DNA of 64,000 nucleotides from Bacteroidota bacterium (GCA_020436225.1 JAGQYE010000007.1:24385-88384); one strand, 5' to 3'. Shown: positions 22,620 to 56,342, numbered from the stretch's first letter. The notes: generated from the sequence alone by a model not told the origin. Program-made: numbers and translations.

Positions 22620-23927
22620 ATGAAGAAACATAGTACACTCTTTCTTTTTTTATTTTTTCTCCTACAAATCCAAGCACAAACTTTATATTTCCCGCCTTTA
22701 ACCGGCAATACTTGGGACACACTTTCGCCGAATAGATTTAATTGGTGTACTGAAAACATTGACTCTTTATACAATTACTTGGAAGCGACACACGCTAAAT
22801 CTTTTATGATTTTGAAAGATGGAAAAATTGTATTGGAAAAATATTTCGGCAATTTCACACAAGATTCTATTCATTATTGGGCATCAGCAGGAAAGAGCTT
22901 AACTGCAACATTAATCGGTATTGCACAAGAAAAAGGCTTACTCAACATCAATGATTCTGTGTCGAAATATTTAGGTGTTGGTTGGACAAGTGAATTACCT
23001 GAAAAAGAAAAACTCATCTCCATAAAAAATGTACTTTCTATGACAAGTGGCTTAGATGATAATCCGGCTGCACCTTGTAATGATTTGAGCCAAGCACCAG
23101 CATGTTTACAATATCTTGCAGATGCAGGCACACGTTGGGGTTATCATTCTGGTCCATATAGAAAATTAGAAGATATTATTGAACTTGTAACAGGGAAAAC
23201 CTACACACAAGCAACAGCAGATTTTATTGGAAATAAAATTGGCATGGATGGTTTGTGGTTTAATAGCGTTTTTTATTCAAACACTCGAGCTATGGCGCGT
23301 TTTGGTTTGTTGATGTTGAATAAAGTCATTTGGCAAAACGATACGATTATGAAAGACACATCTTATTTTAATGCAATGACCAACACTTCTCAAAATCTCA
23401 ATAAATCGTATGGATATTTATGGTGGCTAAATGGAAAAAGTTCATATATGTTGCCAACTGTTCAGTTTATATTTCCATCGATGTTGATTCCTACTGGTCC
23501 ACCGGATATGTTTGTTGCCATGGGCAAAGGACATCAACGAATTTATGTTGTGCCAAGTCAAAAAATGGTAGTGGTTCGAGTAGGCGAAACGCCTGATAAT
23601 TCTTTAGCTTGGTCGCCATTCGATACGATTGTTTGGAAATATATTTCTAAATTGGATGATGCTTGTATGACCACATCTATTCATCAAAACATAAAAAAAA
23701 TTGAACTCAAATTATTTCCAAATCCGGCCAATAATTATTTGTTTTTTGATGGATTTTCTTCTAACGAAACAATTCATTTTCGTATTATCAATTCATTAGG
23801 TCGGATTGTAAAAGAAGATGAAACTTTTAATCACAGCATTGATATCTCCGACTTAGAAAAAGGCAATTATTTTATTTCGCTTCAAAACAAAACAGAAGAA
23901 GCAATAAAAGCATTTATCAAGAATTAA
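22620..23927 (+). CDS. Serine hydrolase (beta-lactamase/PBP-like) with a T9SS C-terminal sorting domain
   Basis: 435 aa with a signal peptide and an SxxK motif (SAGK). The C-terminal ~75 aa (LKLFPNPANNYLFF, ISDLEKGNYFISL) is typical of Por/T9SS secretion tails. Confidence 0.8.
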   Translation: MKKHSTLFLFLFFLLQIQAQTLYFPPLTGNTWDTLSPNRFNWCTENIDSLYNYLEATHAKSFMILKDGKIVLEKYFGNFTQDSIHYWASAGKSLTATLIGIAQEKGLLNINDSVSKYLGVGWTSELPEKEKLISIKNVLSMTSGLDDNPAAPCNDLSQAPACLQYLADAGTRWGYHSGPYRKLEDIIELVTGKTYTQATADFIGNKIGMDGLWFNSVFYSNTRAMARFGLLMLNKVIWQNDTIMKDTSYFNAMTNTSQNLNKSYGYLWWLNGKSSYMLPTVQFIFPSMLIPTGPPDMFVAMGKGHQRIYVVPSQKMVVVRVGETPDNSLAWSPFDTIVWKYISKLDDACMTTSIHQNIKKIELKLFPNPANNYLFFDGFSSNETIHFRIINSLGRIVKEDETFNHSIDISDLEKGNYFISLQNKTEEAIKAFIKN

Positions 23928-23967
23928 TTGAAGTAATATTTACTGTACCAAGGCAATCGGCATATAT

Positions 23968-24057
23968 TATCTTAGCAACAGAGTCTCTTAAAATAGACTT
24001 TGCGTCAATATGATTTACGCAGAGTCCACTATGTGAGACTCTGCTTATAAAAAAAAA
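23968..24057. repeat. Array unit 1 (degenerate arms 1 and 2)
   Basis: Arms are ACAGAGTC 23978-23985, GACTTTGC 23996-24003, GCAGAGTC 24019-24026 and GACTCTGC 24037-24044. The A-run is at 24049-24057. Confidence 0.85.
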
Positions 24058-24080
24058 CTTACTGAGCATTTTTAATTATT

Positions 24081-24169
24081 TATCTTCGTAGCAGAGTCTC
24101 TTGAAAAGGACTCTGCGTCATAAACTTTACGCAGAGTCCACTATATGAGACTCTGCTTGTAAAAAAAAA
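24081..24169. repeat. Array unit 2 (all four arms intact)
   Basis: Arms are at 24091-24098, 24109-24116, 24131-24138 and 24149-24156. The A-run is at 24161-24169. Confidence 0.9.
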
Positions 24170-24187
24170 TTACTACTAATTATAATT

Positions 24188-24277
24188 TATCTTCGCAGCA
24201 GAGTCTCTTGAAAAGGACTCTGCGTCAATAAACTTTACGCAGAGCCCACTTTGTGAGACTCTGCTTATAAAAAAAAA
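24188..24277. repeat. Array unit 3 (one arm substitution)
   Basis: Arms are at 24198-24205, 24216-24223, 24239-24246 (GCAGAGCC) and 24257-24264. The A-run is at 24269-24277. Confidence 0.9.
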
Positions 24278-24294
24278 CGGCAATCGGCATATAT

Positions 24295-24381
24295 TATCTT
24301 CGCAGCAGAGTCTCTTGAAAAGGACTTTGAGTCAATAAACTTTACGCAGAGTCCACTATGTGAGGCTCTGCTTGTAAAAAA
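24295..24381. repeat. Array unit 4 (degenerate arms 2 and 4)
   Basis: Arms are at 24305-24312, 24323-24330 (GACTTTGA), 24346-24353 and 24364-24371 (GGCTCTGC). The short A-run is at 24376-24381. Confidence 0.85.
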
Positions 24382-24395
24382 TGGAAAATTAAAAC

Positions 24396-26381
24396 TTACT
24401 GAGCATTTTTTATTATCTGTTCCACTACGCTTGGGTCTAATAAGGTGGTTGTATCGCCTAAATTATTGATATCATTTTCGGCAATTTTCCTTAAAATTCT
24501 ACGCATAATTTTTCCGCTTCGCGTTTTAGGTAATCCAGTTACAATTTGAATTTTATCGGGTTTTGCAATCGGCGAAATAAGTTTACTCACCGTATCTCTA
24601 ATTTCATTTTTAAATGCTGTTAAGTTCAACAAACGCAAACTATCATCTTCTACATCTCCTGTGTTTGGGTCAGTATCAACCAAACCTTTTTCTATACTTT
24701 CTTTATCTACAATCACAAATGCATAAATTCCTTGTCCTTTAATGTCATGCGGATAAGCTACAACAGCGCTTTCCACCACATTCGGATGTTCGTTAATAGC
24801 ATTTTCCACTTCAGCAGTTCCCAAACGATGTCCACTAATATTCATTACATCATCAACACGTCCAATAATTCGGTAATAACCATCTTCATCTCTCCTACAA
24901 CCATCGCCTGTAAAATATAAATTCGGATAAGCCGAAAAATAAACTTGTTTGCAACGATCATGATCGCCATAGGTTGTGCGTATCATGCCTGGCCAAGGAA
25001 ATTTCATACATAAAAAACCTTCAACGTTATTGCCTTCCACTTCGTAGCCACCACTATCTACTAAAATCGGTTGAACTCCCGGCAATGGCAAAGTAGCATA
25101 AGTCGGTTTGGTTGGCGTAATGCCGGCAATCGGAGAAATCATAATGCCACCGGTTTCTGTTTGCCACCAAGTATCAACAATCGGGCATTTTTGTTTGCCA
25201 ATATTTTCGTGATACCAATACCATGCTTCTTCGTTTATCGGTTCTCCAACAGAGCCAATAACTTTCAAAGAATCCAAGCGATAAGGCTCAACATATTCCA
25301 TGCCACTTGCCATCAACGAACGTATTGCTGTTGGTGCTGTATAAAATTTTGAAACACACAATTTATCTACAATAGCCCAAAATCTTCCGGCATCAGGAAA
25401 CGTTGGAATGCCTTCAAACATTACGGTTGTAGCACCATTCAACAATGGTCCATAAACGATGTAAGAATGTCCGGTTATCCAGCCAATGTCTGCGGTACAC
25501 CAATACACATCATCTTCTTCATATTGAAAAACATTCAAAAAAGTATAATACATATACACCATATAACCGGCACAAGTATGCACTACACCTTTAGGTTTTC
25601 CGGTGCTTCCGGAAGTATAAAGCACAAACAACATATCTTCGCTATCCATTTCTACGGCTTCAAAAACTGCTGATGCTTTTTGCATTTCACTGTGCCACCA
25701 AACATCTCTTCCATCTAACATATTAACGTCAGCGTTGGTGCGTTTATATACTATTACTTTTTCAATAGATGTTGTACTTTGCAAGGCTTCATCGCAGATT
25801 TCTTTAAGTGGTACAACTTTATTTCCACGATACAAACCATCAGCCGTGATGAGCATTTTGCAAGTGGCATCGTTAATTCTATCAGCGATGGATTTGGCAG
25901 AAAAACCGGCAAAAACAACAGAATGTATTGCTCCAATACGAGCACAAGCTAATATGGCAATTGCCAACTCCGGAATCATTGGCATATACACGCAAACTCT
26001 GTCGCCTTTGGTAATGCCATTATTTTGTAACACATTGGCAAAGCGGCAAACTTCTTTATGCAATTCTTTATAGGTTAATGTTCGGTTGGGTTCGTTGGTG
26101 TCATTTGCTTCCCAAATAATTGCCGGCTTATCTCCATTTTTCTCTAAATGTCTATCCAAACAATTTTCCGTAATATTTAATTTTCCATTCAAAAACCATT
26201 TTACTGATGGTTCTTCAAAATTCCATTCTAAAGTTTTATCCCATTTTTGTTTCCATTGAAATGTATCGGCAATTTCGCTCCAAAATTGCTCTGGATTTTC
26301 TACACTTTTTTTATAAGTTTCTTGATAGTCTTGGAAAGTTTGAATTTTATGTGGATGCTTTAACTCATTCATAATTGACAT
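24396..26381 (-). CDS. acs: Acetyl-CoA synthetase (AMP-forming)
   Basis: About 660 aa with the AMP-binding signature YTSGSTGKPKG and typical Acs N- and C-terminal regions (PEQFW, SGKIMRRILRKIA). The ATG at 26381 is preferred over the TTG at 26390. Confidence 0.95.
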   Translation of the reverse strand: MSIMNELKHPHKIQTFQDYQETYKKSVENPEQFWSEIADTFQWKQKWDKTLEWNFEEPSVKWFLNGKLNITENCLDRHLEKNGDKPAIIWEANDTNEPNRTLTYKELHKEVCRFANVLQNNGITKGDRVCVYMPMIPELAIAILACARIGAIHSVVFAGFSAKSIADRINDATCKMLITADGLYRGNKVVPLKEICDEALQSTTSIEKVIVYKRTNADVNMLDGRDVWWHSEMQKASAVFEAVEMDSEDMLFVLYTSGSTGKPKGVVHTCAGYMVYMYYTFLNVFQYEEDDVYWCTADIGWITGHSYIVYGPLLNGATTVMFEGIPTFPDAGRFWAIVDKLCVSKFYTAPTAIRSLMASGMEYVEPYRLDSLKVIGSVGEPINEEAWYWYHENIGKQKCPIVDTWWQTETGGIMISPIAGITPTKPTYATLPLPGVQPILVDSGGYEVEGNNVEGFLCMKFPWPGMIRTTYGDHDRCKQVYFSAYPNLYFTGDGCRRDEDGYYRIIGRVDDVMNISGHRLGTAEVENAINEHPNVVESAVVAYPHDIKGQGIYAFVIVDKESIEKGLVDTDPNTGDVEDDSLRLLNLTAFKNEIRDTVSKLISPIAKPDKIQIVTGLPKTRSGKIMRRILRKIAENDINNLGDTTTLLDPSVVEQIIKNAQ

Positions 26382-56206: not shown

Positions 56207-56235
56207 GTATCGAACCTAACAAGAAAATAAAAAAA

Positions 56236-56331
56236 GGCAAGTTACTTACAGCGCACCGCTCAACCAACTACCTTTGCTGCCTTCCGACCCTGGAGGATTT
56301 GTCAGGAGCTGGTCGTATAAGACTTGCCCGA
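56236..56331 (-). ncRNA. ffs: Signal recognition particle RNA (small bacterial type, 4.5S-like)
   Basis: The minus strand reads GGGCAAGUC...CCAGGGUCGGAAGGCAGCAAAGG...AACUUGCC followed by U7. The CAGG-UC-GGAAGG-CAGC core matches conserved SRP RNA domain IV (E. coli CAGGUCCGGAAGGAAGCAGC). The 5' GGCAAGU pairs with the 3' ACUUGCC, and a -7 box lies 5 nt upstream. End coordinates are accurate to within a few nt. Confidence 0.85.
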
Positions 56332-56334
56332 CCA

Positions 56335-56342
56335 CAAAGATA
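56335..56342 (-). promoter_or_regulatory. -7 box (TATCTTTG) of the SRP RNA gene
   Basis: Exact TAnnTTTG match on the minus strand, 5 nt upstream of the first nucleotide of the SRP RNA closing helix. Confidence 0.55.

Follow-up and report, generated by a model that had tools for sequence, protein, structure and literature searches.

The BIMEs of E. coli and the REPINs of Pseudomonas are the classic examples of REP dimers and REP clusters. REPs stabilize upstream mRNA in E. coli. An extrahelical base in the stem is typical of the hairpins that are recognized by IS200/IS605-type and REP-associated Y1 enzymes. To our knowledge, REP and REPIN biology comes almost wholly from Proteobacteria. REP dimers and REP clusters that are reiterated together with pieces of flanking DNA, the arrangement found at the locus described here, are known from the literature, and REP heterodimers with differing stems or loops are common (PMC3733652). 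TnpA-Y1 subclass 2.6 occurs mostly in Bacteroidetes, and the REPs on its flanks are 'atypical' in that they lack GTAG (PMC6006769). In E. coli, gyrase, Pol I, and IHF bind to BIMEs (cited in PMC6006769).

The locus described here is a tandem array of palindromic units in a 64-kb stretch of Bacteroidota DNA (referred to as the window). The array is probably a BIME-like cluster of a REP/REPIN-type palindromic repeat family of Bacteroidota that occurs mainly in Chitinophagales MAGs. The family was previously uncatalogued, but it is of a well-known kind of bacterial "junk/selfish" DNA, and no new mechanism is required to explain it.

Like the REPs and BIMEs of E. coli, the window family consists of ~30-nt imperfect palindromes with a bulge or mismatch, and two variants of the palindrome are alternately inverted and joined by short linkers of two kinds. 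In both systems, the repeats are extragenic, often between convergent genes, occur in tandem with a strain-variable copy number, and can form separate hairpins or a single long hairpin. In contrast to E. coli REPs, the window family shows no sequence relation to them, has no 5' GTAG tag, belongs to another phylum, and has a seemingly low copy number. The REPINs of Pseudomonas and enterobacteria likewise are non-autonomous inverted REP doublets with a ~90-nt unit and no target-site duplication, and they form subfamilies within a genome and ordered tandem clusters. However, REPINs are defined by a flanking single-copy RAYT, whereas the window family is placed by repeat anatomy. Furthermore, the two halves of the window element are always heterologous in their distal stems, and its core is common to several orders, whereas REPINs are usually lineage-specific. 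The atypical REPs of subclass 2.6 (Bertels group 5) share with the window family a Bacteroidetes host, the lack of GT[AG]G, short hairpins with 3-4-nt loops, and genomic copies elsewhere, but they (e.g., GCTGGCGCGAGCATATGCTCGTGCC) differ from it in a 5' GCTR tag and an unbulged 9-bp stem (PMC6006769).

The array in the window

Tandem Repeats Finder detected a single tandem array at 23967-24381 (period 107, 3.8 copies, 85% matches, score 554), and this array outscored every other repeat in the 64-kb window by a wide margin. The pattern GCAGAGTC-N10-GACTCTGC, with up to 3 mismatches allowed, matched eight times in the window against a chance expectation of 0.03, and all eight matches were in the array. 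Likewise, the exact 8-mer occurred 11 times, only in the array, where 0.35 occurrences were expected in 64 kb. Each unit is ~90 nt long and contains two of these GCAGAGTC-N10-GACTCTGC hairpins (H1 and H2), and the four units together span 23966-24383 (Table 1). A covariance model (R1) located the four units and found no further match in the 64 kb. The array occupies the 468-bp gap from the hydrolase stop to the acs stop. Thus, the repeat finder, R1, and the motif count all agree with the earlier note, which had described four units filling a convergent gap of this size. ORFs in the gap reach at most 50 aa, in keeping with the earlier statement that the gap has none of 60 aa or more.

Table 1. 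Positions of the units, spacers, and flanking genes in the window, and loci that carry the set B repeats
Feature	Position or loci	Strand	Details
Serine hydrolase gene	22620..23927	+	Beta-lactamase fold and T9SS C-terminal sorting domain; upstream convergent gene
Spacer A	23952..23967	.	Left outer flank, ggcaatcggcatatat; second copy at 24279-24294, between units 3 and 4
Unit 1	23966..24056	+	Degenerate; R1 89.6 bits; H1 23978-24003 (ACAGAGTC...GACTTTGC), H2 24019-24044
Spacer B	24058..24079	.	cttactgagcatttttaattat, between units 1 and 2; copy of right outer flank 24395-24416 (includes acs stop codon)
Unit 2	24079..24168	+	Wholly intact; R1 99.7 bits; H1 24091-24116 = GCAGAGTC-T-CTT-GAA-AAG-GACTCTGC, H2 24131-24156; central linker between H1 and H2
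Spacer C	24170-24186	.	ttactactaattataat; resembles a decayed copy of spacer B / right flank
Unit 3	24186..24276	+	R1 104.1 bits; H1 24198-24223, H2 24239-24264; arm 3 = GCAGAGCC
Unit 4	24293..24383	+	Degenerate; R1 96.2 bits; H1 24305-24330 (GACTTTGA), H2 24346-24371 (GAGGCTCTGC); terminal A6
acs, acetyl-CoA synthetase gene	24396..26372	-	Downstream convergent gene; stop codon 24396-24398, 13 nt from unit 4
Set B, Saprospiraceae MAG GL93	L001, L012, L015, L020, L021, L023, L024, L029		
Set B, Acidobacteriota MAG VAR_17	L008, L013, L018, L025, L027, L031, L033		
Set B, Pyrinomonadaceae	L009, L017		
Set B, Nitrospiraceae	L030		

Two details of the units differ from their first description. Both central units had been called intact; this is correct for unit 2, but unit 3 carries a changed arm 3. 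An A9 run had been placed at the end of every unit, and unit 4 is an exception. The A-run in the window is no separate feature: the element has an A-rich right terminus (TGRGAAA in the family consensus), which is expanded here.

The 3' coding end of acs (24421-24438, TCCACTACGCTTGGGTCT) is alike in 13 of 18 positions to the H2 loop and arm of the unit (TCCACTATGTGAGACTCT). This likeness is probably due to chance, though the adjoining flank segment was co-duplicated into the array.

Several known classes of repeats and RNA elements were considered and rejected. An intrinsic terminator does not fit, as there were 0 sites with a hairpin plus U-tract on either strand in 23600-24700; the A-run follows the hairpin on the + strand, and the T-run precedes the hairpin on the - strand. 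This agrees with the earlier observation that no hairpin sits directly before a U-tract. A CRISPR array was rejected because the repeats are ~90 nt, the 14-22-nt spacers are flank copies, and none of the five flanking ORFs that were scanned contained a cas domain; a lack of cas had also been noted earlier. On anatomy only, a type III toxin-antitoxin RNA array was rejected for having no adjacent toxin gene, and integron attC sites for having no cassettes between units. A DNA-uptake sequence was rejected because the 8-mer is missing from the other 63.6 kb. A candidate IHF site in the central linker, judged by eye, did not match the consensus and was not conserved in other loci.

Database comparisons also gave no assignment. 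Rfam returned no match for the array at the gathering threshold, and a permissive search returned only sub-threshold miRNA-type hairpin noise. The sole above-threshold Rfam match in the window was a Bacteroidales-type small SRP RNA at 56231-56336 on the - strand (93.9 bits, E = 3.7e-18). Two units had no blastn match in plasmid and phage records. Viral contigs gave two IMG/VR matches; the one that was read, L046, lies in high-GC, apparently coding sequence and is not the element. The motif was not found described in the literature on REPIN/RAYT and Bacteroidota, and GCAGAGTC/GACTCTGC are absent from the REP tables (Table S1) of PMC6006769. With no Rfam match and no entry in those tables, the array is still not assignable to a known family, as the earlier note had concluded. 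The GTAG- and CGTC-tagged REP superfamilies (PMC3733652) were rejected as well, because the feet of the hairpins are (C)CA on the 5' side and GT on the 3' side, and CGTC occurs only in the window copies, where it overlaps the stem. The lack of both tags, together with the difference from the subclass 2.6 REPs of Table S1 in PMC6006769, counts against the REP/REPIN reading.

Each unit is a pair of inverted hairpins

The half-unit is a module of ~30 nt. In all half-units of the window and of related loci, it consists of (C)CA-GCAGAGTC, a bulged T, C-N-N, a 3-4-nt loop, N'-N'-G, and GACTCTGC-GT. In other words, each half comprises 26 nt plus conserved flanks, with an invariant 8-bp stem, a T bulge, a variable 3-4-bp stem, and a 3-4-nt loop. 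Each half is a 20-40-nt imperfect palindrome that forms a stem-loop, as a REP is. H2 is the reverse complement of the H1 architecture with another distal stem and lies 10-15 nt away, and the resulting inverted pair is reiterated in tandem in the manner of a BIME, REP cluster, or REPIN. The four-armed unit is an inverted heterodimer of two REP-like hairpins. Fold A, with two separate hairpins per unit, had been drawn with 10-nt loops. The hairpins are present, but their loops are not open: three more base pairs follow the bulged T and leave a 3-nt loop.

The distal stems in the window are T-CTT-GAA-AAG in H1 and T-CAC-ATA-GTG in the reverse complement of H2. Across loci, the distal stems include CTT/AAG, CAC/GTG, CTC/GAG, CCT/AGG, CTG/CAG, CCG/CGG, and CCCG/CGGG, so that pairing is kept while the sequence varies. 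The 8-bp arms are strictly conserved in sequence, whereas everything between the arms is variable. Beyond the core, the ends are complementary over ~7 nt (TTTCYCA...TGRGAAA), and the whole element is ~85-90 nt long and non-coding.

Because the two halves are inverted copies, they can form separate hairpins (fold A) or one long hairpin (fold B). Fold B, proposed earlier as a long nested stem, has the minimum free energy on either strand (-39.5/-40.1 kcal/mol, z about -8 to -9). Fold A has -30.6 kcal/mol and is about 9 kcal/mol weaker than fold B. The covariation was evaluated in an alignment of 17 units (A2). Fold A was 97.8% paired in it, and its covariation was 0.142 versus 0.072 in shuffles, a value reached by 0 of 500 shuffles; the compensatory changes were concentrated in the distal stems. 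Fold B was 91% paired, and its covariation was not significant, since 40 of 500 shuffles reached the value. Thus, the two mutually exclusive folds that had been proposed are both real, but they do not amount to a special switch: the alternative is generic to inverted REP dimers, and covariation is seen only in the distal stems of fold A. As judged from the alignment, the hairpin modules are under structural constraint.

The invariant arm sequence with variable DNA between the arms would also suit a multi-site target for a protein that binds double-stranded DNA or cruciforms, such as a nucleoid, gyrase, or partition-like factor. Such a protein would read GCAGAG/CTCTGC half-sites two helical turns apart. 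Eight sites lie within 415 bp, and the binding of gyrase, Pol I, and IHF to E. coli BIMEs provides a precedent (cited in PMC6006769). However, the distal stem varies freely with its complementarity kept, and this argues for a folded hairpin rather than a duplex operator. Furthermore, the sites lie at convergent 3' ends and at random intergenic positions without regulatory logic, and no candidate binding protein is linked to any copy. We consider a duplex target of this kind very unlikely.

Copies of the element in other genomes

One genome per species was scanned for the inner stem GACTCTGCGT-N8-16-ACGCAGAGTC. The scan yielded 36 loci, about eleven of which had exactly the window's architecture. 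The carriers of this architecture were the Chitinophagales MAGs CAZBED01, JAXLTW01, and DAORIK01, 'Bacteroidetes bacterium GWA2_30_7', a bog Bacteroidetes MAG, and a Cyclobacteriaceae MAG. A few further copies came from a metagenome scan. The element is known from at least 12 unrelated intergenic sites in other Bacteroidota MAGs, chiefly Chitinophagales, and is often in tandem. The covariance model R1, which was built on fold A, recovered all matching loci (37-108 bits, E <=1e-5). The earlier note had suggested searching relatives for the unit and had allowed for its having no other copy. Elements of the same architecture were retrieved from other Bacteroidota MAGs and metagenomes, and the number of units in the window's array differs between strains.

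The number of sites per genome varies. In CAZBED01, there are 5 sites on 4 contigs, representing at least 3 subtypes, and in MENC01 there are 2. In the window's own genome, one cluster was seen by motif and R1 within the 64 kb scanned, and the density of the element elsewhere is <1 site per 8 kb. This seemingly low copy number counts against the REP/REPIN reading. The core of unit 2 is 83-91% identical to the copies in L005, L019, L032, and L045, whereas the hydrolase ortholog in the L032 genome has 63% protein identity to that of the window. The conservation of the element therefore far exceeds that of neutral intergenic DNA, through either constraint or transfer.

Some copies carry additional repeats. 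In a CAZBED01 subtype (L003:6904-6992, L016:1117-1233, and L034:3967-4078), the H1 distal stem is replaced or expanded by (CCTG)CCTGTC-GGCA-GACAGG(CAGG), the expanded stem being CCTGCCTGTC-GGCA-GACAGG. A related palindrome is present at 7010-7027 of L003, directly to the right of the copy there. The expanded-stem subtype may represent one small repeat nested within another. At the end of a metagenomic contig (L042:13538-14314), there are at least 3 tandem copies of a 318-bp unit, each consisting of one element with a large H1 insertion and a run of GGA(C/T)(G/T)TTCGGAC-like short repeats. In GWA2_30_7, the core lies within a longer inverted repeat, ggattcgttacgaaataacatgtgcat ... catgttatttcgtaac, at L007:2850-2990 (= L041) and L028:5815-5960 (= L040). 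This embedding points to a carrier of a composite or MITE-like kind in that genome.

History of the acs locus

A second genome, GCA_041393035.1, carries the hydrolase protein unchanged on a 471-kb contig. The flanks of the array there are 99.7% and 98.6% identical to those in the window, yet the array has 6 units instead of 4, although assembly collapse of the repeat could account for part of this difference. The extra piece is a 214-bp block made up of 'spacer A - unit - spacer C - unit'. Variation in copy number at the acs-flanking gap, which the earlier note had proposed to look for, is thus seen between strains. Two short-read assemblies of the same organism have contig ends within unit 1.

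The spacers repeat the DNA just outside the array: spacer A corresponds to the 16 nt to the left of unit 1, and spacer B to the 22 nt to the right of unit 4. The cluster thus grew through units that were reiterated in tandem and took 16-22 nt of flank along. Tandem reiteration with a co-duplicated flank is likewise present in L003, L005, L019, and L042. In three related genera, R1 found no element after the dnaE-glyoxalase-DUF4476-hydrolase block; synteny of the block is kept, and the downstream region differs. The orthologous loci without an element, the flank-copy spacers, and the variation between strains indicate together that the array is a lineage-specific insertion that was later expanded and is still changing.

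The interval that follows this block has different contents in related genera. It contains an S4-domain gene and a GmrSD-type restriction gene ahead of acs in L048 (7351-9543), and S4 and HNH_2-domain genes and others in L052 (7363-10284). In the window (23928-24395), it contains the repeat cluster only. The interval after the hydrolase gene looks like a recombination-prone junction.

Setting of the copies and mode of spread

Every copy is intergenic. Of 15 copies, 13 follow the 3' end of one gene or more, two lie between divergent genes, and most are 20-125 nt past a stop codon. The orientation relative to the transcribed strand is variable. For example, the copies in L005 and L019 are antisense, the copy in L045 is sense, and those in L032 and L043 lie between divergent genes.

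Does the element act mainly as RNA? The units could serve as structured modules in the 3' UTR of acs and/or the hydrolase gene (exonuclease blocks, U-tract-independent terminators, or processing sites) or a small-RNA array, and their conservation would then come from an RNA-binding partner. The position of most copies shortly past a stop codon agrees with this model, as do the very stable folds on both strands (z -7 to -9), the compensatory changes that preserve the hairpins, the lack of a canonical terminator in the gap for either convergent gene, and the stabilization of upstream mRNA by E. coli REPs. However, the orientation is not fixed, Rfam gave no match, and no consistent promoter of the Bacteroidota type or terminator was found at the unit borders; promoter-like sites occurred at chance level. 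In addition, the element is missing from the orthologous acs/hydrolase loci of relatives and is therefore not an acs-linked regulatory feature. Multiple copies at variable locations are the behavior of a repeat family and not of a gene. A mainly RNA-level element is quite unlikely.

The search for a mobilizing enzyme near the copies was negative. Pfam analysis of 134 neighboring ORFs (full tables for 10, the top-25 families for 124) revealed neither a transposase nor a recurrent partner; the families listed were housekeeping families only, and Y1_Tnp was not among them. No ORF with an HUH...Y motif was present in the window or in loci L001-L047. These results uphold the earlier statement that no transposase is nearby. 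The elements are non-autonomous. E. coli REPs, in contrast, have a RayT partner, and the failure of the HUH...Y scan to find a RAYT/Y1 gene in the window and L001-L047 counts against the REP/REPIN reading.

An internally deleted insertion sequence of the DDE-transposase type would give another account of the family. A MITE of this kind would move by cut-and-paste, with TTTCYCAGCAGAGTCTC / GAGACTCTGCTGRGAAA as its terminal inverted repeats, repeated insertion or duplication would account for the array, and the parent insertion sequence would carry TTTCCCAGCAGAGTCTC termini. The size (~85-100 nt), the intergenic AT-rich setting, and the termini that are complementary over ~7 nt beyond the core are all expected of a MITE. 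Likewise, the GWA2_30_7 core is embedded in a longer inverted repeat (ttcgttacgaaataacatg...), and the set B relatives in Acidobacteriota (see below) lie in ~150-bp elements with 21-bp terminal repeats. Cores in longer inverted repeats in these two MAGs (L007/L028 and set B) speak against the REP/REPIN reading, and they would suit a MITE as well as a hairpin 'module' that different elements carry. However, no direct repeat of consistent length or position was found at 17 copies, although the element boundaries are imprecise and the absence of a fixed target-site duplication is weak evidence. The halves of the element are hairpins with covarying distal stems, which would not be expected if a transposase simply recognized terminal repeats. 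Within one genome, the copies fall into diverse subtypes instead of forming a near-identical burst, no transposase lies beside any copy by Pfam of the neighbors and the HUH...Y scan, and there is no similarity to plasmid or phage records.

A comparison with described long-palindrome MITEs leads in the same direction. Correia/NEMIS, RUP, ERIC, and Nezha resemble the window family in being ~100 nt, intergenic, and able to form a long hairpin, and in that they can be co-transcribed into UTRs. In contrast to the window family, they have defined terminal repeats, a fixed target duplication (e.g., TA), and usually a parent insertion sequence, none of which was found here. Conversely, the nested 'palindrome of palindromes' with covarying sub-hairpins is a feature of the window family and not of a MITE. 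We regard a MITE as unlikely. The earlier note had named a REP/BIME-like or MITE-like family as one of its options. The dispersed, intergenic, inverted hairpins support this option in its REP/BIME form.

How would a REP/REPIN-type family of this sort spread? The element may be spread in trans by an enzyme that recognizes the hairpin on single-stranded DNA. Mobilization in trans through single-stranded hairpins by a Y1/HUH enzyme is a tentative proposal, possible rather than likely. The best candidate would be a RAYT-type HUH/Y1 transposase, because Bacteroidetes possess subclass 2.6 with its atypical REPs (PMC6006769), and this makes a RAYT-type partner the most plausible mobilizing enzyme. 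A cluster could then grow by unequal recombination or slippage between units. By analogy with the REPs and BIMEs of E. coli, effects on the host would be secondary; a possible secondary role is the protection of the 3' ends of the two convergent mRNAs or insulation against read-through.

A defined Chitinophagales family provides a handle on whether the Bacteroidetes-specific Y1 subclass services such repeats. Its useful traits are the invariant basal stem, the extrahelical T, the freely covarying distal stems, and a visibly expanding cluster whose size differs between near-identical strains. With this family, REP biology reaches into a phylum that is under-studied and gains a clean test case, though no long-standing question is resolved. 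On the practical side, the cluster breaks short-read assemblies, can serve as a ready strain-typing marker, and should be masked in non-coding RNA screens.

Set B repeats

The genome scan also revealed a second multi-copy family (set B), which spans three phyla (Table 1). Its members are long, near-perfect hairpins whose arms consist of 2-4 tandem CTCTGCG heptamers, with CGCAGAG on the other arm. The top hairpin of set B, GACTCTGCGT-loop-ACGCAGAGTC, is the same as the inner stem of the window element. Because the search used exactly that pattern, the 10-nt inner stem common to the window-type loci (set A) and set B may in part be an artefact and is not counted as evidence.

The two sets could be connected by a common enzyme. 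In this proposal, which we consider quite improbable, the GCAGAG(TC)/CTCTGC(G) hairpin would be the recognition module of an uncharacterized, widespread non-RAYT enzyme acting on single-stranded nucleic acid hairpins. One heptamer would then occur in two architectures: an inverted double hairpin in Chitinophagales and Cytophagales, and a long hairpin with 3-4 tandem CTCTGCG per arm. If true, the proposal would unite the two architectures in a repeat superfamily that crosses phyla and has a new partner protein.

In the long-hairpin architecture, which is multi-copy in Saprospiraceae, Acidobacteriota, and Nitrospiraceae MAGs, the heptamers are about one helical turn apart. The spacing between set B heptamers is 8-11 or 17 nt. 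The terminal repeats of the VAR_17 set B elements have the sequence tagtgtcctaataatgtgttg.
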